From NCBI GenBank assembly GCA_036786835.1, contig DAIQQK010000006.1, positions 1,131-65,130 of the forward strand: 64,000 bases of DNA, given 5' to 3'. The stretch comes from Acidimicrobiales bacterium. GTDB taxonomy: Bacteria > Actinomycetota > Acidimicrobiia > Acidimicrobiales > UBA8190. Each line of letters begins with the position of its first letter. Position 1 is the first letter of the stretch. Below the pieces are notes generated by a model. The model did not search any database, had not been told where the DNA came from, and was given only the letters and a program-made list of their open reading frames with translations. Shown here piece after piece: positions 9,715 through 42,029 of the stretch. Position numbers and translations under genes: made by a program.

Positions 9715-9762
9715 CCGAAGTTCAGGGCGGCCGAAGTTCAGGGTGGCCGAGTTCAAGGGGCG
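9715..9762. repeat. 16-bp x3 tandem repeat CCGAAGTTCAGGGYGG between convergent genes
   Basis: Units at 9715-9730, 9731-9746 and 9747-9762 (third degenerate, overlapping the stop of the GGDEF-EAL gene). Confidence 0.85.
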
Positions 9763-12068
9763 CGGGGGGCGCTCTCGGGGGCGGAGTTGTGCTCGGCCAG
9801 GAACGCCTCGACCGCGTCGGACTCGAGCGGCCGGCTGAACAAGAAGCCTTGGCCCCGCTCGCAGCGCTCCTCCTGGAGGTCCTGGAGCTGCCAGTCCTCC
9901 TCGATGCCCTCTGCGAGGGTCTCGACCCCGAGAGTGCGGCCTAGCTGGACCAGGGTGTGCACCAGGGCAGCCGACTCCGCCGAGTCCTGCATGCCGGCGA
10001 TGAACGACCGGTCGATCTTCAAGGCGTCGACGGGGAACTGACGGAGGTACGCCATGGAGGAGTACCCGGTGCCGAAGTCGTCGATCGCGACGAGCACCCC
10101 TATCTCCTTCAGCCTCCGCAGGCGGTTCACGGTGGCGTCGGTGTCGCGCATGAGCGTCGACTCGGTGACCTCGATCACGAGGGCCGATGGGTCGAGCCCG
10201 CTCGCAGACAGCGCCTCGGTCAAATGTCCGACGAAGCTCTCGCTCTCGAGCTGTCTCATCGAGACGTTCACCGACATCACGAGGCGGTGCCCGAGCCGGT
10301 GCCACTCTGCGGCCTGCATGCACGCCTGGACGAGCACCCACTTGCCGACGTCGAGGATGAGGCCGCTCTCCTCGAGCATCGGGACGAACTCGTTGGGGGG
10401 CACGACGCCGCGAGTCGGGTGTCGCCAGCGCAACAGCGCCTCCACCCCGCAGACGCTCTCGTTGTCGAGGTCGAACACCGGCTGGTACATCAAGAAGAAC
10501 TGCTCTTCGCCCAAGGCGCAGCGCAGGTCCATGTCGAACGAGAGCCGGTCGAGCACGGCCGACTGCATCTCGGGTTCGAACATCGTGGTCCGGCTCTTGC
10601 CCTTCGCCTTCGCTCTGTAGAGAGCGATGTCCGCATCACGCAACAGCTCGCTGGCCGACACCCGCTCTCCCGACGCGATTCCGATGCTCGCCGTGACCGT
10701 CAGGGGGATCCCGCCCCACCCTTCGATGTAGAAGGGCTCGCGCAGCACGTCTTGGATCCGCTGCGCTACGAGCTCGGGCCCGGCAAGAAGCGAAAGGCCA
10801 TCGGCGAGCACGACGAACTCGTCCCCGCCGAGACGCCCGACGGTGTCGCTTGCGCGCAGGACCCCGGAGAATCGCTGGGCGACCGCCTGGAGGAACTTGT
10901 CGCCCGTCTGGTGACCGAGGGTGTCGTTTATGTCCTTGAAGTTGTCGAGGTCGATGAAGAGCGCCGCGACGGGGTGGTGACCGAGGTCGCGCCTCGATCG
11001 GGCGAGCATCTGCTCGGCGCGGTCGAGTATCAGCGTCCGGTTCGGCAATCCCGTGAGCGGATCGTGCAACGCGGCGTGTGCGAGGCGCTCCTCAGCGAGC
11101 TTGCGCGCTGTTACGTCGCGGAGGTTCGCCACTATCCCGTTCACGTCGGGGTCCTCACCGAGATCCGCGAACGCGGCCTCGAACCAGAGCCACTCGCCGT
11201 CGGAGCGCCGCACCCTGATCTCCTGCTGCACGCTCAACGTGCCCGAGGCACGCGCCGCCGCCATGGCCTCGCGAAGCGCGTGCACGTCGCTCGGGTACAC
11301 GAGAGCCTCGAGGTCGGCGACCTCTTCCTCGGCATAACCGAGGAGCCGCTCGAACGCCGGGCTCGCGTAGCGGAGGCCCCCGTCGGGGCCGAACACTATG
11401 ACGATGTCGGCGGAGTTGTTCACGAGAGCCGAGAAGTGCCGCTCCCGGCGCCTCAGCTCGCGTTCGGCTTCCTCCCGTGCGAATGCGAACCAACCGAGGA
11501 GCGCGATTATGAGCACGACGGCGGCAGCCTCGAGCCCCGCGATCCCCTGTGCGAGCGGCTGGTGGATGAAGGACGGGACGAATCCGAGGGCGATGCCGAG
11601 TTGCCCGGCACCGATCACGAAGAGGCTTGACGCGATCGCGGGCCTCGCGACCGCCGAGCCGGTGCGCCGCATGATGTCGGCCGCACCGATGACGAGGGCC
11701 ACGGCGAACACCGGCCCCCAGCCGATGGCATATACGACGGCGCCGATCGCACAGAGGTCCACTCCGGCGAGGGCCCAGGTGCGCCAGCCGGACCGAGCCT
11801 CGCTCCACGCGGCGAAGGCGACAACGCTCGCGACCTCTGCAACGAGGACGGTGGTGAGGATCGACCAGTAAGGGATCCCTGGGGCGACGAGGCGGTGCTG
11901 CCTCAGGAGATAGAAGCCGACCGCCACCGCCGGCACGGCGATGTTGATGGGGTGGGCGAGGCGAGCGAGGACGGCCGGAGCAAGCCGCTTCGTCCGTTCG
12001 CCGAGACCCAGGTCACGTGCCATGGAATAGGTCTTCGGCCCGACAACGACCGCACTTGACAAGGACAA
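9753..12068 (-). CDS. Membrane sensor diguanylate cyclase/phosphodiesterase (PAS-GGDEF-EAL)
   Basis: Multi-pass hydrophobic N-terminus, PAS-like segment, RASDTVGRLGGDEF (RxxD I-site spacing), EALLRWRHP and DDFGTGYSS of the EAL domain. Confidence 0.9.
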   Translation of the reverse strand: MSLSSAVVVGPKTYSMARDLGLGERTKRLAPAVLARLAHPINIAVPAVAVGFYLLRQHRLVAPGIPYWSILTTVLVAEVASVVAFAAWSEARSGWRTWALAGVDLCAIGAVVYAIGWGPVFAVALVIGAADIMRRTGSAVARPAIASSLFVIGAGQLGIALGFVPSFIHQPLAQGIAGLEAAAVVLIIALLGWFAFAREEAERELRRRERHFSALVNNSADIVIVFGPDGGLRYASPAFERLLGYAEEEVADLEALVYPSDVHALREAMAAARASGTLSVQQEIRVRRSDGEWLWFEAAFADLGEDPDVNGIVANLRDVTARKLAEERLAHAALHDPLTGLPNRTLILDRAEQMLARSRRDLGHHPVAALFIDLDNFKDINDTLGHQTGDKFLQAVAQRFSGVLRASDTVGRLGGDEFVVLADGLSLLAGPELVAQRIQDVLREPFYIEGWGGIPLTVTASIGIASGERVSASELLRDADIALYRAKAKGKSRTTMFEPEMQSAVLDRLSFDMDLRCALGEEQFFLMYQPVFDLDNESVCGVEALLRWRHPTRGVVPPNEFVPMLEESGLILDVGKWVLVQACMQAAEWHRLGHRLVMSVNVSMRQLESESFVGHLTEALSASGLDPSALVIEVTESTLMRDTDATVNRLRRLKEIGVLVAIDDFGTGYSSMAYLRQFPVDALKIDRSFIAGMQDSAESAALVHTLVQLGRTLGVETLAEGIEEDWQLQDLQEERCERGQGFLFSRPLESDAVEAFLAEHNSAPESAPRAP

Positions 12069-33042: not shown

Positions 33043-33834
33043 TCACAGACCGCACACGGTGCGCGTCGTCCACGGCTCCCAGCCGTCCTGGTCGTACAGC
33101 GCCAGCGCCGCGGCATCCTGTGTCGAAGGAGGGTAGTCCTGTGCCGAGCCTGCAAGGCCGGTGACCGACTGCCAAGTCGCGTCTTCGAATTGATACGCCC
33201 CGCCACCTGAGTCCGAGTAGTTGTCGTCGCTTTCGTGCGAGCGGATGCACGCCCAGTCCGAAGTGTCGGTCGAAGTGGCATCCGATGCTGCCTGCAGGGG
33301 AGCTTCCGGTGGAGAGGGCGCGGGCGGTGGGGTTTGAGCTGCGGCGGCGGCGTGTGCATAGGCGGCAGCGGCATAGGCATAAGCCGCCTTGGCATAGGCC
33401 TCCTTGGCCTCGGCCGAAACCGAGACCTTCGCAGCGAGGAGCTTCATCGAAGTCGAGACCGCGGCGGCTGCGGCCTCCCTCGTCGAGGCCGAACCGCGCA
33501 CCGAGCCTCGCGCGTGCCGAGCAGACCCGCTTCCCATGGAAGCGAGCACGATGGCCAGCACGACCGCCAAGCTGGCGACGACCGTCGCGACCCTCTCCCA
33601 CAGCGCCACGTGGTGGGAGCGTGCGTGCTGCGGCTTGCCCCTCGGCCAACCGATCCGCTCCAACAACCTCGACCGATCGGGGACGTCCTCCCAGAAGACC
33701 CGATCGCGTACGTCGGCCCACAGGGCTTCGTCCGAACAGTCCCACGTCTCCTCGTCGGGAACCTCGCCCAACCCCTCGCATTCGGAGGTCCCCTCGAGTA
33801 CGAGCTCATTGCCCTCGGTAAGTGTCCCTTCCAT
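33043..33834 (-). CDS. Membrane-anchored transglycosylase-like (Rpf/SLT-like) protein
   Basis: ATG 33834. Acidic N-terminus, TM VATVVASLAVVLAIVLASM, Ala-rich linker, C-terminal WACIRSHES...GGGAYQFEDATW. Confidence 0.7.
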   Translation of the reverse strand: MEGTLTEGNELVLEGTSECEGLGEVPDEETWDCSDEALWADVRDRVFWEDVPDRSRLLERIGWPRGKPQHARSHHVALWERVATVVASLAVVLAIVLASMGSGSARHARGSVRGSASTREAAAAAVSTSMKLLAAKVSVSAEAKEAYAKAAYAYAAAAYAHAAAAAQTPPPAPSPPEAPLQAASDATSTDTSDWACIRSHESDDNYSDSGGGAYQFEDATWQSVTGLAGSAQDYPPSTQDAAALALYDQDGWEPWTTRTVCGL

Positions 33835-33837
33835 TTG

Positions 33838-33870
33838 CTTCTCGTTCCTCTTCTCGTTCCTCTTCTCGCT
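33838..33870 (-). repeat. 12-bp tandem repeat (2.75 units) directly upstream of the Rpf-like start codon
   Basis: cttctcgttcct x2 + cttctcgct on plus; purine-rich GAGAAGAGGAAC on the coding strand. Confidence 0.85.
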
Positions 33871-33877
33871 TTTCGGA

Positions 33878-33904
33878 GTGCGCGCGGTGCGCGCTGTGCG
33901 CGCG
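33878..33904 (-). repeat. 9-bp x3 tandem repeat GTGCGCGCN in the same leader
   Basis: gtgcgcgcg/gtgcgcgct/gtgcgcgcg. Confidence 0.85.
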
Positions 33905-33973
33905 CCATCGGACGAAGTGGGGGGTTGGCTACAGATGCGAATACCGACGGATGTCCGCCGGTGGCTCGGTCCT

Positions 33974-34753
33974 CTAGGACGAGCTCCGTGCTGCGTGCGT
34001 ACCCGGGTGCCCCGCACTCGGCTTCGCTGCGGCGTGCAAGCTGGAGGTCACCATGACCGCCTTCAGGACCAACCTGTGCGTGGCCGACCCGGGTGGCGTG
34101 CAGGTGGTCAGGGTCAGCGTGTACTCGCCCGGCGTGTTCGCCACCACCGAGGTGTCGGTCGGCAGCACCGAGAACGGGGGTGCGCTCACCACGTAGGAGC
34201 ACGTCCACGCAGGCGTGGAGAACTCGACCAGGTCACCGGGCCCCACCTTGTCGAGCGCCGCGAAGGGATGGAGGAACGTGGTGCGGTGCCCCGCCAGAGC
34301 TGCGTTGCCGATGGTGCACGGCATCGGGCTACCCGGGTAGTGGCCCGGACCCGATGCGAGGGCTGCCGCGTCGACCCCTTGCACCGCCACCATGTTGAGC
34401 CCGATGGCCGGGATCATGATGCGACCGATCGGCTTGCCGTCCGCGACCGTCCCGTTTGCCACTTGCCCTGCCAACGCCGGGTCGTCGAGCTGGCCCGCGA
34501 GCTGGTTCTGGCGGTTGCCCGCCCACCAGTTGCTGAGCATCGGGAATGCCAGCGCCGCTGCGGCCACGAGGCAGAGCAGCAGCACGAGCACCGGGAGCCC
34601 GAAGCGGGTCCACCGGCTCCGGGCCACACGTAGAGTGCGCCGGCCTCGTGGCGCGCGCCTTGCGTGTTGGGGGCGTCGCCCACGTCGATCGCCTCCGCCG
34701 GCACCGGTGGCTCGCGTAGCCGGTGCCGACGGGGGCGAGAGCAGCGTCGTCAT
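33974..34753 (-). CDS. Sortase (class E-like by architecture)
   Basis: N-terminal TM, GHRTTF (His), TLTTCTP (catalytic Cys). 7-bp gap after the LPFTG protein gene. Confidence 0.85.
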   Translation of the reverse strand: MTTLLSPPSAPATRATGAGGGDRRGRRPQHARRAPRGRRTLRVARSRWTRFGLPVLVLLLCLVAAAALAFPMLSNWWAGNRQNQLAGQLDDPALAGQVANGTVADGKPIGRIMIPAIGLNMVAVQGVDAAALASGPGHYPGSPMPCTIGNAALAGHRTTFLHPFAALDKVGPGDLVEFSTPAWTCSYVVSAPPFSVLPTDTSVVANTPGEYTLTLTTCTPPGSATHRLVLKAVMVTSSLHAAAKPSAGHPGTHAARSSS

Positions 34754-34760
34754 CGCCGGG

Positions 34761-35582
34761 TCAGGCGAAACGACGTCGGGCGATTCGCAGGCCCAGCGCC
34801 ATGAGGCCGGTCAGCCCCCCGAGACCGAGTGCGGATTCCCCGACGAGCGGGATCCAGGACGGCTCGCCTGTGAAGGGAAGCGTGGCGCCGGACGGGTCCG
34901 AGCTACCAGAGGCCTGCGCGACCGGAGTGGACGCCGACGCGTCGGTCGGGCTGGTGGATGCCGACACGCTGCCGGCAGGAGTCGAGCCGGTCGCGTCTGC
35001 GGTAGCCGGCGGAGTCGTACTGGTCGACGGGCTCGACAGACCGGGGATGCTTCCGAGGGCACCCGTGAGCGCAGAGGCCCCGGGGATGCTGCCGAGCGCG
35101 CCGGTGAGAGCAGAGGCTCCCGGGACACTGCCGAGCGCACCGGTCACGGTCGACACGACGCCCGTCGGGTCAGGAAGCCCGCCACTCGAACCACCCGAAC
35201 CTGTCGCGGCGCCGACAGCCCCCGTGACGGCTGAGGCTCCCGGGACACTGCCGAGCGCACCGGTCACGGTCGAGACGATGCCAGTCGGGTCGGGCACGCT
35301 CCCGCTCGACACCGGTACCGATCCGAGCGCACCGGTCACGGTAGAGACGATTCCAGTCGGGTCGGGAAGGCTGCTACCGGATCCTGCAACCGACCCGAGT
35401 GCACCGGTCACGGTGGAGCAATCGACCGGAAGACTGACCGGCAGTGCCGACGTCACAGTCGAGCACGGGTCCGACTGCGCCCACGCAACGCTGGCGGTAA
35501 CAGGTCCCGCGACGAGTGCGACTGTGGCGCCCGCCGACACCAGAACCCCTTTGACGGCCTTCGACGAGATCTTCATGGACAT
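34761..35582 (-). CDS. Secreted repeat protein with LPFTG cell-wall sorting signal
   Basis: ATG 35582 follows AGGGGG. Signal peptide ...VTASVAWA. 13-aa GASALTGALGSIP-type repeats. C-terminal TLPFTGE + hydrophobic stretch + RIARRRFA. Confidence 0.8.
   Translation of the reverse strand: MSMKISSKAVKGVLVSAGATVALVAGPVTASVAWAQSDPCSTVTSALPVSLPVDCSTVTGALGSVAGSGSSLPDPTGIVSTVTGALGSVPVSSGSVPDPTGIVSTVTGALGSVPGASAVTGAVGAATGSGGSSGGLPDPTGVVSTVTGALGSVPGASALTGALGSIPGASALTGALGSIPGLSSPSTSTTPPATADATGSTPAGSVSASTSPTDASASTPVAQASGSSDPSGATLPFTGEPSWIPLVGESALGLGGLTGLMALGLRIARRRFA
35041..35418 (-). repeat. Nested coding repeats of the LPFTG protein (39-bp units; 59-bp near-identical copies 120 bp apart)
   Basis: 35113-35171 and 35233-35291 differ at 3 positions. 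39-bp periodicity from 35041. Core CCGAG(C/T)GCACCGGTCACGGT recurs at least 4 times. Confidence 0.85.
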
Positions 35583-35859
35583 TTCGTGCACCCCCTGAGT
35601 TCTTGGACCTCGGCTGCCGAGATCCCCTTGAACCACAGTGGGTGTACGGATGGCCACCCCGGCTACTGGCGAAAAACCTTCGGAATTCGCGAAGAGCACC
35701 TTGGACAGCTACGACGCGAAGCTACAAAGACCCTTACTACCGCGTAACCGTTTCGTGGCGGGTGGTCGCGCGACCGCGCGCACGGCGTGCTGTGCAAAGG
35801 AACGGTGACGATGCTCCGGCCGAAGAAGAGCGCTCTACGGGTGCCGACCTACGAGCAAT

Positions 35860-37317
35860 TCAGGGAGTGATGAGGTTGCCGGCGAGCCCGCCGATCCCGG
35901 CGAGCCCGCCGGTTACCGACCCCGCGCCATCCGCCGGCGCAATGCCCGCCGAAGAGGAGGTCGCGGGCGCCTGCGGCGCAATCGGACCGAGGACTGCACC
36001 GAGACCGCTCGCGCCATCCGAGCCCGTGATGGCTCCTTGGACCGCATTGGAAACGGTGGTCGTAGCTTGGCCGACGACAGAGGAGCCGAGCCCGGCTACG
36101 GCGCCAAGCGGCAACTGGCCTATTGAGCCGAGAGCTCCGAGCGCGCCACCGACCGTCCCGGCGACGGCGCTGACGACGCCGCCCACCGAACCCACGGTGC
36201 TGGAGATCGCGTTCGTCACCGCGCTCTCGATGTCGGGCGCCGGGATCCCAGACAGCAGGGAGCTCCCGGACGCACCAGCCAAGTTCCCGTCGTTGCCCGC
36301 CGGCCCCGACGACCCGGCGTCCGACCCTGACGTGTTGCCTAGCGCCGCGGCACTCGGCGAGACGGGATCGTCATTCGTCTGCGCAGCGCTCGAGCCGGGC
36401 CTCGCGACGGGCCCCGCGCTCTGTCCGGAGAGGACCGGGGAGGACCCTGACGCGTTGCTTGCCTGCCCCGCCACGGTCGTGATCCCGTTCGGCTGAGCAA
36501 CCTGAGTCGGCGTCAGCGAAGTAGGGGCGCTGAGAGCCGACGCCACAACCACCGCTGCAGCCGCAGCTGCTGATCCCATCGCAAGTGCGCCGCCTCCCCC
36601 GTTGTGCCCGATGGCGGCGACCCGCCGAATGGCACGAACGGGCAGGCGAAGCAGTCGCCGCAATGCCGCGAGCGACAACGCGCTCCCGATCCACGCAGCC
36701 GTCCGGTCCTCTGCGCGAACGAGCATCGCGAACTCGCGCCTGAGAGCTTGGCGCGCGCGCCAAAGCAAGGTCTCGACGGCCGTCGTCGCAAGGCCTTCGT
36801 GGTCGGCAATCTCCTGGTACGACCACTCGGAGCCTTCGCGCAGCCTCAGAACTCGCTGATGACGCTCCGACAACCGCTCGAAAGCTCTTGCAACGAGTTG
36901 CGAATCCACCGCCGCGATCATCAACTCCTCGCCGCCGTCCTCGCAGCTCGCAATGTTCTTCTGGTGAAATTCCGCGACAGGAGTCGAGCGCCTACGGCGT
37001 CTCCACACGTCTGTGCAAAGGTGGGCCGCGATGACGCTCAACCACGGATAGAAGCTGCGAGCGCCGTCGAAGGTGGACAACGCTCGCCAAGCACGCGAAA
37101 ACGCTTCCTGAGTTACATCCTCGGCTTCGTGCGAGTCGTGAAGGCGACGGACGCAGAACCTGAACAGCCGCTTGTAGTAGCGCATGTAGAGATCGTCGAA
37201 GGCTGCGCGATCGCCGGCTTGGGCACGGGCCACGAGCTCTCGATCGCGTTCCGGGTCGACGTTGTCGTCCGGCCCCTGCCAGCTACGCGTCCGCTCACTC
37301 GTCGCGACCGTCGTCAC
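35860..37317 (-). CDS. ECF-type sigma-70 factor fused to a TM segment and a G/S/A-rich extracytoplasmic tail
   Basis: Sigma2/sigma4 regions (ARAQAGDRAAFDDLY, EDVTQEAFSRAWRAL, FYPWLSVIA, SYQEIADHEGLATTAVETLLWRARQAL), then ALAMGSAAAAAAVVVASALSA and about 260 aa of low complexity with no stop. GTG 37317 follows AAGGGGGG (longest ORF to 37425). Confidence 0.8.
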   Translation of the reverse strand: MTTVATSERTRSWQGPDDNVDPERDRELVARAQAGDRAAFDDLYMRYYKRLFRFCVRRLHDSHEAEDVTQEAFSRAWRALSTFDGARSFYPWLSVIAAHLCTDVWRRRRRSTPVAEFHQKNIASCEDGGEELMIAAVDSQLVARAFERLSERHQRVLRLREGSEWSYQEIADHEGLATTAVETLLWRARQALRREFAMLVRAEDRTAAWIGSALSLAALRRLLRLPVRAIRRVAAIGHNGGGGALAMGSAAAAAAVVVASALSAPTSLTPTQVAQPNGITTVAGQASNASGSSPVLSGQSAGPVARPGSSAAQTNDDPVSPSAAALGNTSGSDAGSSGPAGNDGNLAGASGSSLLSGIPAPDIESAVTNAISSTVGSVGGVVSAVAGTVGGALGALGSIGQLPLGAVAGLGSSVVGQATTTVSNAVQGAITGSDGASGLGAVLGPIAPQAPATSSSAGIAPADGAGSVTGGLAGIGGLAGNLITP

Positions 37318-37633
37318 CAAGCCCCCCTTGAATCGCCCTGACTGACACCTTGCGCGTACCGGTTCTCTTCGAGGCTCGAGTGCCAGGGTCTGGAGCGACC
37401 GCACCTCTTCCGGATTGATTTTCATGTTACGTGAGGGATCGAGTTTTTCAATGCCCTGGGTGCGCGCGACACCTTCCTCGGCCTCTTGCAGAGCGTCTCT
37501 TGACCCTTTGAAAATCCATCTTCACGACTGATTCGTGCCTGAAAAGACGTTGGGAAATGGCAACGAAAGTTTTGGGTCCGTGGGGCGTACACCTACACGC
37601 AAGTCCCGAAACGGACCGGGGGGGGTAGGTAGC

Positions 37634-39097
37634 GTGCGATGGGAAGGTGGACCAAGTTCGTCGCAGCGCGGCGAAACATCAGCAGGCACCGGGGAGGTCG
37701 ACCTCGTAAGGGATCGAACCCTCGTACTTCGTGCGCAAGCAGGGGACTCGAGCGCGTTTGCCGACCTGTACGTCCTTTACTCCCGGCGACTCCGCCGCCT
37801 TTGCGCCAATCGGCTTGGCGACCGCAACGACGCCGAGGACGTGACCCAGGAGGCCTTTGCGCGAGCCTGGAGGGCCCTTCCCGGCTTCAACGGCGCGCGC
37901 ACGTTTTACCCGTGGCTATCGGTCATCGCCAACAACCTCTGCACGGACATCCTTCGCCGCCGTGAGTTGGAGCTCACCGCCAAGATGGCTCAGAGGGACA
38001 TCGCCAGCACCGAAAACCCTGGCGAGGAGTGGGCGGTCGCGCGCTCCGAGGAGGAGATGGCGAGCGAGGCGCTCGGGCGGCTGTCCGATCACCACCGGCG
38101 GTTACTGCGCTTGCGCGAGGAGCTCGGATGGTCCTACGAACGCATCGCCACCCACGAGGGCGTGAGCATCAGCTCGATCGAAACGCTGATGTGGCGTGCC
38201 CGCAAGGCGTTGAAGCGCGAGTTCGCCAAGATGTCCGAGAGCGGGCCACTCGCGGTCTGGGTTGCAGGACTCTCGTTTTCGGCGCGGGGCCTCGGCGGCA
38301 CGTCGGTTCGACGGCTGAGCAGCACCTTCCTACGGGCGGCGAGGATGCTGACGAGGTTGCCGGCAGCGGCCGGCTCCTACTCCTCGGCACCGATCCTGGC
38401 GACGGCCGCAGGAAGCGCCATCGCGGCGGCAGCCTTTCAGGTTGCTCCTAATGCTGCGTTTGCAGCTGAGGCAGCGACGACGGCGATCCAGGCAAATGAA
38501 GCTCCTTCGCCTGCGACGCCTGCCAGCTCTGCGACGCCTGCCAGCTCTGCCACGACTTCGGACGCGCCGATGCGCCTCGCGACTCCGAACGTCGAGATGG
38601 TCTCGAGAGGGTATTCGCTTCCGGTCGTCGCGCCCTGCGCCCCGACGTCAAACACACAGGATGCCGACGTTTTCCCTTCGACCACCTCCTTGGGAGCGTT
38701 CGCGCCGGCACCTGCACCTGCACAGGGTCTTTCGAACGGCGCTCAGGCGCTCGGCGACGGGGTACGGGGCGTGACCGACGTCGTCACCTCGGTAACCGGC
38801 ATTGCGAACGTCGTCGTTGACCAGACGACGACGGCGGTGGTCTCGCTGCTCGACCAGGCCGGGTCCGCGCTACCTCAGGCGTCGCCGACCTCTGCGGTCG
38901 CAGGCGCTCTGACCTCGGTGGTCGATCCTTTGACTGCGGTCCTCGCGCCGCCGGCGGAACCAGAGGTCAGCTCCCCGGCCCCTTTGGTCGACACGGTGAC
39001 GGCGACTCTGGCTCCACAGCCTGACGCGCCCCTCGCGGCTCTCACTCCCGTCGCAGGTTCCCCAGCCGCCGCCCTGTCGCCGGCGGTGGGCAAATGA
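37634..39097 (+). CDS. ECF-type sigma-70 factor fused to a TM segment and an A/S/T/V/P-rich tail (paralogue of 35860..37317)
   Basis: LRAQAGDSSAFADLY, EDVTQEAFARAWRAL, FYPWLSVIA, SYERIATHEGVSISSIETLMWRARKAL, then APILATAAGSAIAAAAFQV and a low-complexity tail. GTG 37634 follows GGGGGGG (longest ORF from 37535). Confidence 0.8.
   Translation: MRWEGGPSSSQRGETSAGTGEVDLVRDRTLVLRAQAGDSSAFADLYVLYSRRLRRLCANRLGDRNDAEDVTQEAFARAWRALPGFNGARTFYPWLSVIANNLCTDILRRRELELTAKMAQRDIASTENPGEEWAVARSEEEMASEALGRLSDHHRRLLRLREELGWSYERIATHEGVSISSIETLMWRARKALKREFAKMSESGPLAVWVAGLSFSARGLGGTSVRRLSSTFLRAARMLTRLPAAAGSYSSAPILATAAGSAIAAAAFQVAPNAAFAAEAATTAIQANEAPSPATPASSATPASSATTSDAPMRLATPNVEMVSRGYSLPVVAPCAPTSNTQDADVFPSTTSLGAFAPAPAPAQGLSNGAQALGDGVRGVTDVVTSVTGIANVVVDQTTTAVVSLLDQAGSALPQASPTSAVAGALTSVVDPLTAVLAPPAEPEVSSPAPLVDTVTATLAPQPDAPLAALTPVAGSPAAALSPAVGK
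38513..38548 (+). repeat. 18-bp x2 perfect in-frame duplication (ATPASS) in the sigma fusion 2 tail
   Basis: gcgacgcctgccagctct twice. Confidence 0.9.
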
Positions 39098-39205
39098 CCT
39101 CCTCGAGGAAGCTTCGAAAAGGTCCGACCCAAGTGTCGAGGCGAGGCCGACGCAACCGTTCTCCTTTCATGGGAAAGAGTCGGGGGGCACTGTCTCGAGG
39201 CGCGC

Positions 39206-40162
39206 ATGGTCCCAGAGACACTTGACCGCATCTCGCCGATGGCCGCCTTTGCTCCCTCTGAAGTCCCGAACCAGTCCTTCCGGCAGGCGCTCGACTCGCT
39301 CGACAGCGGGGTGCTGATCTGCGACGCAGATGGACGCGTCTTGATCGAGAACGTGGCCGCAGCCTCGTTGCACGGACTCGAGGCGGGGCAACTGACCGGC
39401 TACGCCTATGCGTCCAGCGCCAAGCTCAGCTCGGACGAAGGGGAGGAGGTGGCTCCGGAGGACCACCCCCTCACGCGAGCCCTCGCCGGGTCGGTCGTCC
39501 ACAATCAGCGACTGTCCATCAGGCACGACCACGAGTTCTTGCGACCCGTTGCCGTCTCCGCCCGACCGTTCTCGCTCGGGGACCACGGTTCCGGCGCACT
39601 CCTCGAGATACACGACGAAACCGCACAGCGGGAACGGGAGAGGTCTCTGACTCGGCTGGCCCTCCACGACCCGTTGACGGGCCTGGCGAACCGTTCTCTC
39701 ATCTTCGACCAGCTGACGCGGATGATCGCCAGAACCCGTCGCGAGAAGGGCAACCTGTGGTTGATCTTGCTCGACCTCGACGATTTCAAGGTCCTGAACG
39801 ACAAGCACGGTCACCTGGCCGGAGACGAAGTCCTCATCGAGTTCGCTCGCCGTTTCAAGCGGGTCGCCCGGTCGAGTGATGTCGTGGGTCGCCTCGGCGG
39901 TGACGAGTTCGTCTTGTTCGGAATGGCCGACGTCTCGGCGGTCGATGCAGTGCTGGAGCTCGTAGCGAACAGAGTCAAGAGCGTCTTTGCGATCCCCTAT
40001 CGAGTCGACGGAAAGCGGGCCCGCCTCGCGGCGAGCGCCGGATCTGTCATCGCCGACCATCGCGAATCCGTGACGACTTTGCTCGAGCGTGCAGACCGCG
40101 CGATGTACGGCGAGAAGAACCGCCGGAGCTTGACCATTGGAGATCGGGAGGCTGAACGATGA
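39206..40162 (+). CDS. PAS-GGDEF diguanylate cyclase
   Basis: PAS-like N-terminus (LDSGVLICDADGRVLIEN), RSSDVVGRLGGDEF with RxxD I-site spacing. Confidence 0.9.
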   Translation: MVPETLDRISPMAAFAPSEVPNQSFRQALDSLDSGVLICDADGRVLIENVAAASLHGLEAGQLTGYAYASSAKLSSDEGEEVAPEDHPLTRALAGSVVHNQRLSIRHDHEFLRPVAVSARPFSLGDHGSGALLEIHDETAQRERERSLTRLALHDPLTGLANRSLIFDQLTRMIARTRREKGNLWLILLDLDDFKVLNDKHGHLAGDEVLIEFARRFKRVARSSDVVGRLGGDEFVLFGMADVSAVDAVLELVANRVKSVFAIPYRVDGKRARLAASAGSVIADHRESVTTLLERADRAMYGEKNRRSLTIGDREAER

Positions 40163-40629
40163 GTGTGACGATCAAGAAACACCCGAGGCTCAGGAGCCTG
40201 CTGGCCCCGTCCATCGGGGCCGCCGTCGTGGTCGTCGCGCTTTCCATTCCGGCGACCGTCCTGGCCGGTACGACGTCCGGTTGTTACCCGGCTGCGACCT
40301 GTACCACCCCGTCCACCCCTGATGGCCCGACTGTTTCGGGGAGTGACGGGACAGCCGCCAACGGCGGCGCGTCAGGCGCCAACGACGGGCCAACGAGCGC
40401 TAGCCGGCCCACGACGGCGGCCAACACGAGCTCGTTGCCGTTCACGGGAGGCGACATAGAGCAGCTGGCCGGGATCGGCGCCGGCGCAGTCCTCTTGGGC
40501 GGTCTCCTCGTCCTTCGTAACCGGCGTCGTGGACGTGGCGCCGGCACAAACAGCGCTCCCGGACTGGTGCTGGCCGGAAGGACTGTGTGGTCGCAGTGGC
40601 AATCGGATTCACGTACCAACCTGAGCTAA
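40159..40629 (+). CDS. Small secreted protein with LPFTG sorting signal
   Basis: ATGA overlap with the cyclase stop. Signal peptide ...IPATVLAG. SSLPFTGG + hydrophobic stretch + RNRRRGRG. The ORF continues about 30 aa past the basic tail, so the exact 3' end is uncertain. Confidence 0.7.
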   Translation: MSVTIKKHPRLRSLLAPSIGAAVVVVALSIPATVLAGTTSGCYPAATCTTPSTPDGPTVSGSDGTAANGGASGANDGPTSASRPTTAANTSSLPFTGGDIEQLAGIGAGAVLLGGLLVLRNRRRGRGAGTNSAPGLVLAGRTVWSQWQSDSRTNLS

Positions 40630-40691
40630 CCGCCCCGCACCCAGGACGGCGGATCTCCACTCGCCTGGTCCCTGGGTCGACTGCGCGCGCG

Positions 40692-42029
40692 ATGGCCGGT
40701 CTGGCCGGGCTCGACCTCGTCGTCCTATTGCTCGTTGCGGGGGGCTTCGCACATCGGCCGGCAACCAAATGGGTTCTCCTCTTTCCGATCGTGGCTGTCG
40801 CGCTCCTCGCCACCAACCGGCACTACGCGCCGAGGATCACCCTGGGCGTTGCGCGCGAAGCACGCTCGATCATCGGGCGGATGGCGATCTCGGCCGTGCT
40901 GCTCGATGTCGTCCACGTGGTGCGCATTGTGAGCCTTGTCGAGATCGCCTCGATCGCATCGGCCTCGGTCCTCATAATTCGCAGCCTCGCCTACAAGACG
41001 ATTGGAAGTGCCCGAGCTCGAGGGCTCCTGAGCGAGCGAACTCTGATCCTCGGGTGCGGACGCGTGGGCGTGCAACTGAGCTCCCTCATGACGGAGCATC
41101 CCGAGTGCGGCTTGAAGCCTGTCGGGTTCCTCGACGACGTCGAAGGGGTCGAGGGAAGGGAGTTGCCGCTGCCCCACTACGGCCCCGTGAGCCTCCTCTC
41201 GACGGTACTGAACGAGCAGGCGATCGACAGAGTCGTGGTCGCCTTCGGCATCACGAAGGAGCCAGAGACGCTCGCGGTGATCCGGGAATGCGAGAGCACA
41301 TCTGTCGTCATCCACGTCCTGCCGAGGTTCTTCGAGCTCGGAGTGGCCGTGGACGGGAGTGGCGTCGACGAGTTATGGGGGATCCCGCTCGTGCGGCTGC
41401 GAAGGCCTCGACCTTTCGGCTGGGCAACACGTGCGAAGAGAGCCGTAGACGTGATGCTCTCGGGTGTCGCCCTCATGCTGCTCGCGCCGTTGTACGGGGC
41501 ACTGGCACTGGCGGTGAAAGCTTCGAGTCCCGGAGGCGTCTACTTCCGCCAGAAACGAGTCGGGCAGAACGGCACGATCATCGAGATCCTGAAATTCCGC
41601 TCGATGCGAGTCGCGGACGGCCCGGACACCGAGTGGAAGGCCGACGAGGAGAGGATGACCAAGGTCGGGAGGCTCATGCGGCGAACGAGCCTCGACGAGC
41701 TGCCTCAGCTTTGGACGGTTCTGCGGGGGGACATGTCACTCGTCGGACCCCGACCCGAACGTCCCTACTTCGTCGACCGTTTCAAGTCCGAGATCCGGCA
41801 CTACGAATCGCGTCACCGCCTCCCTATGGGGCTCACCGGGCTTGCGCAGGTTCACGGGCTCCGGGGAGACACCTCCATCGAGGAGCGGGCGAGGTTCGAC
41901 AACCGCTACATCGAAACCTGGTCCCTTTGGCGCGACCTCGTGATCCTCGCTCAGACGTTCTTCGCGGTGGCGCACGAGGCTGTCGGAACGCTTGGCGAGA
42001 GCGAGTACGGGTTCGTCTCTCGGGAGTGA
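40692..42029 (+). CDS. Polyprenyl-phosphate glycosyl-1-phosphate transferase (WbaP/CpsE-type bacterial sugar transferase)
   Basis: LLAPLYGALALAVKASSPGGVYFRQKRVGQNG, FRSMR, DELPQLWTVLRGDMSLVGPRPERP. N-terminal TM helices. ATG 40692 preferred; the longest ORF (40587) overlaps the upstream gene. Confidence 0.85.
   Translation: MAGLAGLDLVVLLLVAGGFAHRPATKWVLLFPIVAVALLATNRHYAPRITLGVAREARSIIGRMAISAVLLDVVHVVRIVSLVEIASIASASVLIIRSLAYKTIGSARARGLLSERTLILGCGRVGVQLSSLMTEHPECGLKPVGFLDDVEGVEGRELPLPHYGPVSLLSTVLNEQAIDRVVVAFGITKEPETLAVIRECESTSVVIHVLPRFFELGVAVDGSGVDELWGIPLVRLRRPRPFGWATRAKRAVDVMLSGVALMLLAPLYGALALAVKASSPGGVYFRQKRVGQNGTIIEILKFRSMRVADGPDTEWKADEERMTKVGRLMRRTSLDELPQLWTVLRGDMSLVGPRPERPYFVDRFKSEIRHYESRHRLPMGLTGLAQVHGLRGDTSIEERARFDNRYIETWSLWRDLVILAQTFFAVAHEAVGTLGESEYGFVSRE

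Follow-up and report, generated by a model that had tools for sequence, protein, structure and literature searches.

What holds together a compact group of eight envelope and signalling genes that is headed, in two directions, by a pair of sigma factor genes? The question is raised by positions 33043-42029 of a 64,000-nucleotide stretch of DNA from an Acidimicrobiales bacterium (GenBank assembly GCA_036786835.1, contig DAIQQK010000006.1, positions 1,131 to 65,130 of the forward strand); this whole stretch is referred to below as the window. An earlier note, made from the sequence alone, had described the locus as a mirror-image, self-contained unit that assembles and controls a surface layer or biofilm matrix. 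Here we report a computational analysis of the eight genes, of their relatives in other genomes and of the DNA between them.

The interpretation that we prefer, and in which we place about even confidence, is that the 9-kb island holds two adjacent, separable envelope modules, each lying beside a sigma factor of the extracytoplasmic function (ECF) type that is predicted to be membrane-tethered and that belongs to an Acidimicrobiales-specific family. On the best reading, module A consists of the sigma gene sigA, a surface protein with its sortase (the LPFTG_A/sortase pair) and a membrane protein that is fused here to an Rpf-type muralytic domain, and module B of the second sigma gene, sigB, a conserved leader, a cyclase gene, a second sorting-signal protein (LPFTG_B) and a polyprenyl-phosphate glycosyl-1-phosphate transferase (PGT). 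Both the cyclase gene and the Rpf domain seem to have been added locally, and the back-to-back layout is most simply explained if two paralogous sigma genes and their modules were brought together in this lineage. Because the core of each arm recurs in another contig (L085 for arm A, L084 for arm B) and sortase genes are enriched beside the sigma family, a link between tethered sigma factors and surface-protein anchoring is plausible.

All eight open reading frames (ORFs) were recovered at or near the positions given in the earlier note, in the same order and on the same strands, and its labels agree with Pfam and NCBIfam domain searches. The features of the locus, with the evidence for each in brackets, are as follows.

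33043-34017, minus strand: Rpf-like membrane protein (Pfam PF06737 Transglycosylas as C-terminal domain; transmembrane segment)
33974-34753, minus strand: sortase (Pfam Sortase; class E closest)
34761-35582, minus strand: LPFTG_A, repeat protein of 273 residues (sequence, hydropathy, tandem repeats)
35677-35695, minus strand: hairpin resembling a terminator, after the sigA stop and before the LPFTG_A start (weak evidence)
35860-37317, minus strand: sigA, ECF sigma fusion (Pfam, NCBIfam, hydropathy, AlphaFold, family alignment, tree)
37318-37633, no strand: divergent spacer of 316 bp between the sigma genes (low GC, promoter scan)
37634-39097, plus strand: sigB, ECF sigma fusion paralogous to sigA (Pfam, NCBIfam, hydropathy)
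39134-39186, plus strand: conserved non-coding leader or promoter block upstream of the cyclase gene (alignment to L084:1646-1697)
39206-40162, plus strand: predicted PAS-GGDEF diguanylate cyclase (Pfam GGDEF, PAS_4)
40159-40629, plus strand: LPFTG_B, small secreted protein (hydropathy; homologue at L084:1793-2227)
40692-42029, plus strand, ORF open from 40587: PGT (TIGR03025, Bac_transf)

The sigma factors sigA and sigB

Both sigma factors are ECF (group 4) members of the sigma-70 family: they contain regions sigma2 and sigma4 only, score 98.6 (sigA) and 85.2 (sigB) against the superfamily model TIGR02937 (cutoff 42.9), and exceed the Pfam gathering scores for Sigma70_r2 and r4_2. Their description as paralogues in the earlier note is borne out by 52% identity over 220 residues, which is confined to the sigma domain and the linker that follows it; the tails do not align. 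The GTG start of sigA yields VTTVAT and fits the family N-terminus (M/V/L)TTLLTGG.

Membrane tethering, which had also been proposed, is supported at the level of prediction. Hydropathy places hydrophobic windows at residues 240-269 of sigA and 250-272 of sigB, and an AlphaFold model built on the sigA family alignment shows well-defined sigma2 and sigma4 domains (predicted local distance difference test, pLDDT, 83-96), a helix that continues from sigma4, a second helix at residues 247-261, and a disordered tail from residue 262 to 485 (pLDDT about 30-39). This outer tail of sigA comprises about 220 residues rich in Ser, Gly, Ala and Thr; sigB has the same layout, but its low-complexity tail is unrelated to that of sigA. 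Beyond the sigma core, each protein is predicted to carry one transmembrane helix and an extracytoplasmic tail.

The same architecture emerged from an alignment of 16 family members, in which a near-invariant sigma core (FYPWLSVIA.(H/N)LCTD and ETL(L/M)WRAR(Q/K)AL(K/R)REF) is followed by a basic linker, an Ala-rich hydrophobic segment and about 200 non-conserved residues rich in Gly, Ser, Thr, Ala and Pro. A helical linker of about 45 residues lies between sigma4 and the membrane segment. None of the 16 aligned members has the ZAS-type motif HxxxCxxC in the stretch from the sigma core to the transmembrane helix; sigA has no Cys after sigma4, and the single Cys of sigB lies in the outer tail. 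With E values of up to 5 allowed, Pfam searches still found no domain in the sigma tails, in LPFTG_A or in the N-terminal portion of the Rpf-like protein.

Homologues of sigA fall into at least 266 clusters at E <= 1e-10. Those with a named source come from metagenome-assembled genomes (MAGs) of Acidimicrobiales or other Actinomycetota and from Aciditerrimonas ferrireducens, apart from one MAG labelled Acidobacteriota, and the family has so far been seen only in Acidimicrobiia-type Actinomycetota. Multiple copies occur in at least three MAGs (L004/L021, L020/L027 and L033/L083). sigA clusters with L085 and L081/L082 in a neighbour-joining tree that carries no support values. A close orthologue of sigB was not found among 5.8 billion proteins, the best match being P0121, with 62% identity over the sigma domain only.

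The spacer between the two genes (37318-37633) is as poor in GC as had been claimed: 0.570 against 0.677 for the window, within the lowest 0.2% of 316-nt windows. It contains G-run ribosome-binding sites for both sigA and sigB, and one sigma70-like promoter match for sigA (37451-37424, minus strand; one match against 0.4 expected). Runs of 5-8 G (AAGGGGGG) lie a few bases before the GTG, TTG or ATG start in nearly every family member; they were located at 37318-37340 and 37610-37633 in the window and upstream of the sigma start in L001-L020, L081, L083 and L085. The spacer and the upstream region of L084 have no motif in common. A bipartite k-mer search of 52 family upstream regions returned nothing above shuffles except a clade-specific sigma70-like element. 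The search for a family-wide ECF promoter was accordingly given up, its only yield being that sigma70-like element, TGGACTT-N-GAGTACTCTTAGTGGTG, which is found a single time in each locus and not at all in the window; in the sortase-linked clade it is kept about 100-180 nt upstream of the sigma gene. Elements resembling CCGTTC/GGAAC near other sigma genes of the family were discarded as incoherent.

Two further observations concern the tails and the neighbours of the sigA group. At the protein level, the sigA tail (window 35860-36520) and the LPFTG_A repeats (34880-35490) have TV(G/T)GALG(S/A)(L/V/I)-like strings in common; although the score exceeded all 300 shuffles (z = 4.5), homology was not accepted, as both sequences are of low complexity. 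An ancient homology between the two sigma tails, or between the two LPFTG proteins, was rejected by alignments. Receiver-only (Response_reg-like) genes adjoin sigA-type sigma genes at L081:6467-6814(-), in L081/L082, and at L085:6609-7058(-) and L085:7607-7987(-); the window has none.

Module A and its relatives

The sortase of arm A scores 90.5 bits against Pfam PF04203 and 55.9 against TIGR01076 (cutoff 39.35), and its catalytic His, Cys and Arg lie in the motifs AGHR, TLTTC and HRLV, as befits the sortase superfamily; an Arg-rich cytoplasmic segment and a transmembrane helix make up its N-terminus. The best-scoring class model is class E (NCBIfam NF033747), although the score of 106.5 bits stays below the cutoff of 160. 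The best matches among solved structures, 5GO5 and 5CUW (SrtE1), point in the same direction. The GPGHY motif (Y139) aligns with GLGHY of 5GO5; judged by this position, Y139 would be the equivalent of SrtE1 Tyr229 in the beta3/beta4 loop (PMC5148588). A protein annotated in an NCBI Acidimicrobiales MAG (P0236) is identical to the window sortase.

Directly upstream, LPFTG_A is a secreted protein rich in Gly, Ser, Thr and Val, with PDPTGIVSTVTGALGSVPGAS units in 13- and 24-residue tandem repeats. It has a signal peptide, an LPXTG motif, a hydrophobic stretch and a short basic tail, the C-terminus reading ATLPFTGEPSWIPLVG...RIARRRFA, and its gene is separated from the sortase ATG by 7 bp, as the earlier note had stated. 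On these features, and on the conserved pairing in the orthologous loci described below, LPFTG_A is predicted to be the cognate substrate of the adjoining sortase. The residue at P3 is Pro (LPFTG) in this substrate and in all its orthologues, at variance with the LAXTG signal of class E; SrtE1 is reported to be able to process Pro at P3 as well in vitro (PMC5148588).

The third protein of the arm passes the threshold of PF06737 marginally (29.7-30.2 bits against a cutoff of 27, residues 251-318). This C-terminal transglycosylase-like domain is preceded by an Ala-rich linker and a transmembrane segment at residues 136-168, and the helix in turn by a cytoplasmic segment, FWxD..LLE..GWPR. A Glu motif, ...HES..., presumably occupies the position of CES in Rpf. 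The start is uncertain between GTG 34017 and the equally possible ATG 33834. A perfect 12-nt tandem repeat (CTTCTCGTTCCT x 2.6; window 33838-33868) lies directly upstream of the latter, in a stretch of strong AT skew, and would encode EKRNEKRNEK if translation began at 34017.

Orthologues of the window sortase with 63-78% identity were found in four fetched loci (L086-L089), of which L086 and L087 are near-identical contigs from two samples. In each, an LPFTG_A orthologue with PDPTG(I/V)VSTVTGALGS repeats and the signal ATLPFTGEPSWIP...R(L/I)A(A)RR lies directly upstream of the sortase. These pairs stand alone, so that substrate and sortase constitute an independent conserved unit. The terminator-like hairpin of the window (35677-35695) is followed closely by a block that shows weak conservation in front of those LPFTG_A orthologues that lack a sigma gene, which suggests that the LPFTG_A/sortase pair has a promoter of its own; the number of such hairpin matches in the region is not above chance.

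More distant sortases (56-68% identity; L170-L172) adjoin a substrate whose Cys-repeat passenger is unlike LPFTG_A and whose signal is SLPFTGEP(S/T)W, and the pair is divergent from a stand-alone ECF sigma gene accompanied by a ZAS-type anti-sigma gene. In these loci (L170:6504-10720, L171:6665-10714 and L172:6602-10720) the substrate has three Cys-containing repeats, the sigma factor about 165 residues, and the anti-sigma factor about 490 residues with a periplasmic-binding-protein-like outer domain. One assembly, GCA_054639155.1, carries both a sigma-linked pair (L172) and a sigma-less pair (L088). Comparison of the window flanks with the L170-type loci returned distant paralogues only, and the LPFTGEPSW substrates match no family model.

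Parts of module A recur in L085, an 8.3-kb contig with the closest relative of sigA. A sortase gene of the window type, 1.6 kb downstream of this sigma gene, is cut off by the contig end; the fragment is 61% identical to the window sortase over the last 41 residues, including TLTTC. Downstream of the sortase, between two receiver-only genes, L085:7179-7466(-) encodes a 95-residue membrane protein that resembles the cytoplasmic and transmembrane part of the Rpf-like protein (FWxD.P..LLE..GWPR..PQH; E 3e-9) and has no Rpf domain, so that this domain looks like an addition in the window. A sigA-type sigma factor, a window-type sortase and this membrane protein thus co-occur in a second organism, within 3.3 kb and in a gene order different from that of the window.

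In a scan of one genome per GTDB species, which supplied 51 loci of the sigma family (L001-L051) and 29 control loci of generic ECF sigma factors, a sortase was encoded in the flanks of 16 family loci and in those of none of the controls (Fisher p = 3e-4, calculated on loci that are phylogenetically non-independent). Another sortase module, of three genes, is divergently linked to the sigma gene both in the sister clade of sigA (L001-L014, L083) and in a second clade (L016, L017, L019, L025, L026, L030). Its genes encode a secreted protein of about 530 residues ending SPT(A/S)VHTGE(W/P)W.GS.PL...GWPR(L/I)RR, a divergent sortase of 360 residues that scores below the general TIGR01076 cutoff, and a low-complexity transmembrane protein of about 275 residues. 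The substrate and the third protein match no NCBIfam model, and the module appears to be a sortase system not yet described, whose signal is not of the LPXTG type. It was located at L083:5995-11461 and also in L001-L006, L010, L011, L013, L014, L016, L017, L025, L026 and L030. At L019:9073-9786(-) the L083-type sortase is broken into two short ORFs, which suggests a decaying copy. In both L173 (1-10316) and L083 (1-12509) the sigma gene is flanked by an Mce/MlaE-MlaD operon on one side and an ABC ATPase gene on the other; the VHTGE module lies between the Mce operon and the sigma gene in L083 and is absent there in L173, a difference that would fit a module gained or lost at one fixed position.

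Module B and its relatives

The first gene behind sigB encodes a protein with a GGDEF domain (PF00990, 131.7 bits) and a PAS_4 domain (28.4 bits). It reads RSSDVVGRLGGDEF, that is, an RSSD I-site followed by an intact GGDEF A-site, and on these motifs 39206-40162 is predicted to encode a diguanylate cyclase. The cyclase has no close relative in the metagenome scan, which returned generic GGDEF proteins only (best 34% identity); its use as an anchor to trace arm B elsewhere was therefore abandoned. Its stop codon overlaps the LPFTG_B start in ATGA, in agreement with the earlier note.

LPFTG_B has a Cys pair, a stalk rich in Ser, Thr and Gly, the signal SLPFTGGDIEQLA, a transmembrane helix, the basic stretch RNRRRGRG and a conserved cytoplasmic tail, APGLVLAGRTVWSQWQS. 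After ...SLPFTGGDIEQLAGIGAGAVLLGGLLVLRNRRRGRG the protein continues for 31 residues, so that a conserved tail of about 30 residues extends beyond the charged stop-transfer segment. The elements of a sorting signal are all present in addition to this tail; the Pfam Gram_pos_anchor score is 14.3, below the threshold of 20. Among 1.84 billion representative proteins, 116 relatives were found at E <= 1e-3, most of them of 100-125 residues and ending directly after the RRRR stretch. A minority (P0357, P0358, P0361, P0368, P0416 and P0432) keep the cytoplasmic tail behind unrelated passengers, with the consensus (P/A)GF(V/L)L..R(T/P)VWSQW(Q/R)S, which corresponds to window 40540-40629 and L084:2140-2227.

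The PGT has an N-terminal transmembrane region, and scores 353.8 against TIGR03025 (EPS_sugtrans, cutoff 295.55), 203.7 bits against Bac_transf and 31.8 bits against CoA_binding_3. By these models it is a member of the general family that primes exopolysaccharide (EPS) synthesis. The earlier label of a WbaP-type enzyme proves too narrow, the TIGR03022 (WbaP) score being 218.8 against a cutoff of 403. The start is most likely ATG 40692, because the L084 homologue aligns from its Met1.

L084 is a 3.3-kb contig with the closest homologue of sigB (62% identity), and its gene order, sigma factor, LPFTG_B homologue and PGT, is that of arm B. The LPFTG_B homologue (L084:1793-2227, 144-168 residues) is 41% identical to LPFTG_B (E 3e-21), the two having in common the Cys pair, LP(F/L)TG(G/A)DIEQLA, the transmembrane helix, the basic stretch and the tail APG.VL..RTVWSQWQS. 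The PGT (L084:2290-3309) is 52% identical to that of the window over 314 residues. No GGDEF gene was found in L084, including the interval between the sigma gene and the small LPxTG gene.

Conservation extends to non-coding DNA. The leader at 39134-39186, TGTCGAG-N14-ACCGTTCT...ATGxGAxAGA..GGGGG, is identical to L084:1646-1697 at 38 of 53 positions, with a score of 19 against a maximum of 16 in 1000 shuffles (z = 7.4); comparable similarity was not found between the two loci upstream of the sigma genes or of the PGT genes. The alignment ends at a G-run and an ATG, which is the start of the cyclase in the window and that of the small-protein ORF in L084. Most simply, a cyclase gene would have entered directly behind the common leader, or have been lost in L084, with LPFTG_B left translationally coupled to it.

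Two modules, one unit or a chance neighbourhood

In the two-module interpretation, each sigma factor would be held at the membrane by its own transmembrane helix and activated by regulated proteolysis, or by a tail-dependent signal that reflects the condition of the wall or surface, along the lines proposed for IutY and the ECF48/52/53 fusions; the released or active sigma factor would then drive the neighbouring module. sigA would control the repeat protein, the sortase and the membrane/Rpf protein, so that module A would display and anchor the repeat protein with local remodelling of the wall. From the conserved leader, sigB would control the operon of cyclase, LPFTG_B and PGT, the PGT starting a glycan on a lipid carrier and the cyclase raising cyclic di-GMP (c-di-GMP). 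The Ser/Thr-rich stalk of LPFTG_B may be the acceptor of this glycan, and LPFTG_B itself would be anchored by the arm-A sortase.

Several points weigh against this interpretation. The membrane segment is Ala-rich and of modest hydropathy (maximal Kyte-Doolittle values of 2.0 in sigA and 1.5 in sigB), and the linker, not long enough to hold a canonical anti-sigma domain, offers no obvious means of keeping the sigma factor inactive. The family tree is a neighbour-joining tree, lacking support values. Modules A and B are each backed by one other contig, both of them short and cut at an end, and the sortase pairs of L086-L089 have no sigma, Rpf or PGT gene nearby. No promoter motif common to the sigma genes and the module genes was found, and so the regulatory link rests on gene neighbourhood. 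The nearest candidate, ACCGTTC(T/C), which occurs upstream of the cyclase and LPFTG_A genes and nearly upstream of sigB, with four of its ten window copies in the locus, was rejected as too weak.

The missing promoter motif also speaks for the rival that survives best, namely that the sigma factors run unrelated regulons and the envelope genes adjoin them by accident. We judge such a chance neighbourhood unlikely, though it retains appreciable weight. ECF sigma, GGDEF and envelope genes are numerous in Acidimicrobiales genomes, the closest LPFTG_A/sortase orthologues have no sigma gene at all, and no sortase was found within about 7.5-10 kb of the close sigA relatives L081/L082 or near the sigma genes of L173 and L174. 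GGDEF genes, moreover, occur at variable positions in family and control loci alike. Accident accounts poorly, however, for the way in which sigma and sortase genes lie close together in four or more arrangements (L085, the window, and the L083 and L170 types) and in none of the 29 control loci, and for the retention in L084 of leader and gene order (sigma, LPxTG, PGT) at protein identities of only 41-62%.

Further c-di-GMP genes were seen in the window, where an ORF of 771 residues at 9753-12068(-) encodes a PAS-GGDEF-EAL protein, and elsewhere: GGDEF-EAL genes lie near the sigma gene in L081/L082 and about 6 kb from the sortase in L086/L087, in inconsistent positions. No known RNA elements were found in the locus.

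The earlier note had favoured a single integrated assembly and control unit in which all eight genes cooperate, a view that we now regard as improbable. In its favour, the eight genes are all related to the envelope or to signalling and form a compact island that is sharply bounded by metabolic genes, its flanks encoding a TrkA-type channel, a polyhydroxybutyrate (PHB)-esterase-like hydrolase, an alcohol dehydrogenase, an acyl-CoA dehydrogenase and an enoyl-CoA hydratase; the PGT lies outside any larger polysaccharide cluster. The 64 kb contain one sortase and two sorting-signal ORFs in total (LPFTG_A and LPFTG_B), so that LPFTG_B probably relies on the sortase of arm A. Yet the complete two-arm arrangement was found in no other locus searched, and none of the 51 family loci has a homologue of the PGT, the Rpf domain, LPFTG_A or LPFTG_B within about 10 kb. 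On a 2.7-Mb MAG contig (CAVTQZ010000001.1) a sigA-like gene (L083, 595700-617160) and a sigB-like gene (L033, 1732688-1753320) lie about 1.1 Mb apart. Together with the lack of a close relative of the cyclase and of a close orthologue of sigB, these results show that the two-arm arrangement is not conserved. In the only other version found of each module, the cyclase (module B) or the Rpf domain (module A) is absent. The supposed mirror image holds for the sigma genes, though not for their tails, and fails for the LPFTG proteins, which are unrelated beyond the motif. The co-occurrence check suggested in the earlier note therefore came out divided: the arm cores recur and sortases are enriched, whereas the locus as a whole is not conserved.

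A third possibility, in our view a long shot, is that the tethered sigma factors monitor sortase processing inside the membrane and so couple anchoring efficiency to transcription, the remnant left after cleavage between LPFT and G, or the unprocessed precursor, contacting (a detail to which we attach equally little credence) the transmembrane segment or linker of the sigma factor or the FW..GWPR protein: a tail PGFVL..RTVWSQW(Q/R)S that is conserved behind differing passengers would be unexpected in a discarded peptide, the sigma factors recur beside sortase/substrate pairs, and a streptococcal two-component system is reported to sense an LPXTG remnant (cited in PMC11326707), but LPFTG_A and the VHTGE substrates have short tails only, and the conserved tail might just as well act for the PGT or in holding the protein in the membrane. 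The corresponding general proposal, that self-tethered ECF sigma factors of Acidimicrobiales monitor sortase-mediated display, with their membrane and tail region sensing unprocessed substrates or remnants of cleaved signals left in the membrane, those with the conserved cytoplasmic tail included, and tune the expression of substrate, sortase, hydrolase, PGT and cyclase, seems to us just as doubtful; if it were true, the window would hold two such feedback circuits side by side.

We therefore retain the interpretation as two separable modules. The Acidimicrobiia are abundant in soil and water yet have hardly been studied, the construction and regulation of their cell surface included. The locus and its relatives supply testable parts: lineage-specific, predicted self-tethered ECF sigma factors without the usual anti-sigma module; their repeated genomic ties to at least two sortase systems (LPFTGEPSW and the divergent VHTGE(W/P)W); and a glycan-priming enzyme whose partner is a small anchored protein with a cytoplasmic tail that is conserved. 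Control of the modules by the sigma factors, if true, would extend the known modes of ECF regulation and offer a handle on surface display in an uncultured lineage; if the sigma factors do not control them, the locus is an ordinary cluster of envelope genes.

Among known systems, dedicated sortase/substrate pairs are matched by LPFTG_A, 7 bp upstream of its sortase, and by the LPFTGEPSW(I/V)P unit that is kept in L086-L089 and L170-L172; unlike the known pairs, the sortase here stays below the class E cutoff and the substrates have no family model. The C-terminal domain of the Rpf-like protein, which passes the Pfam threshold, resembles the Rpf proteins of Actinomycetota, from which it differs in being tethered through a transmembrane helix to a conserved cytoplasmic segment. 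In Streptococcus gordonii a histidine kinase is reported to sense the LPXTG remnant peptide (PMC11326707); this sensor is a two-component kinase and not a tethered sigma factor, and the likeness to the present locus is conceptual only.

A closer thematic parallel is found in Streptomyces, in which the ECF sigma factor BldN drives the chaplin genes, the long chaplins are substrates of SrtE (PMC6101532, PMC5148588), and c-di-GMP feeds into the same developmental programme (bioRxiv 10.1101/2020.04.24.060822), which serves the formation of aerial hyphae. The BldN/chaplin/SrtE1/SrtE2 system thus combines, like the locus, an ECF sigma factor, surface proteins anchored by class E sortases and c-di-GMP. 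It differs in that BldN is soluble and has a separate anti-sigma factor, RsbN, that the genes are dispersed, and that the signal is LAXTG as opposed to LPFTG; the substrates of the locus are unrelated to chaplins, and sigma regulation is read here from gene neighbourhood only.

The sigma factors themselves are best compared with the sigma/anti-sigma fusions, namely IutY of Pseudomonas putida (ECF243), ECF48, ECF52 (SCO4117) and ECF53, which in the case of IutY are activated by proteolytic release, a mechanism that has been proposed for ECF48/52/53 (PMC8999054). In contrast to ECF48/52/53, sigA and sigB have no zinc-finger between sigma4 and the transmembrane helix, the linker measuring only about 45 residues, and their outer part is a disordered, low-complexity tail without a carbohydrate-binding, FecR-like or other Pfam domain. 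As in these fusions, an ECF core is joined to a C-terminal membrane segment and a long extracytoplasmic extension, with no separate anti-sigma gene adjoining, and the arrangement of one or two transmembrane helices with a long extracytoplasmic extension that marks ECF48/52/53 is predicted for sigA and sigB as well.

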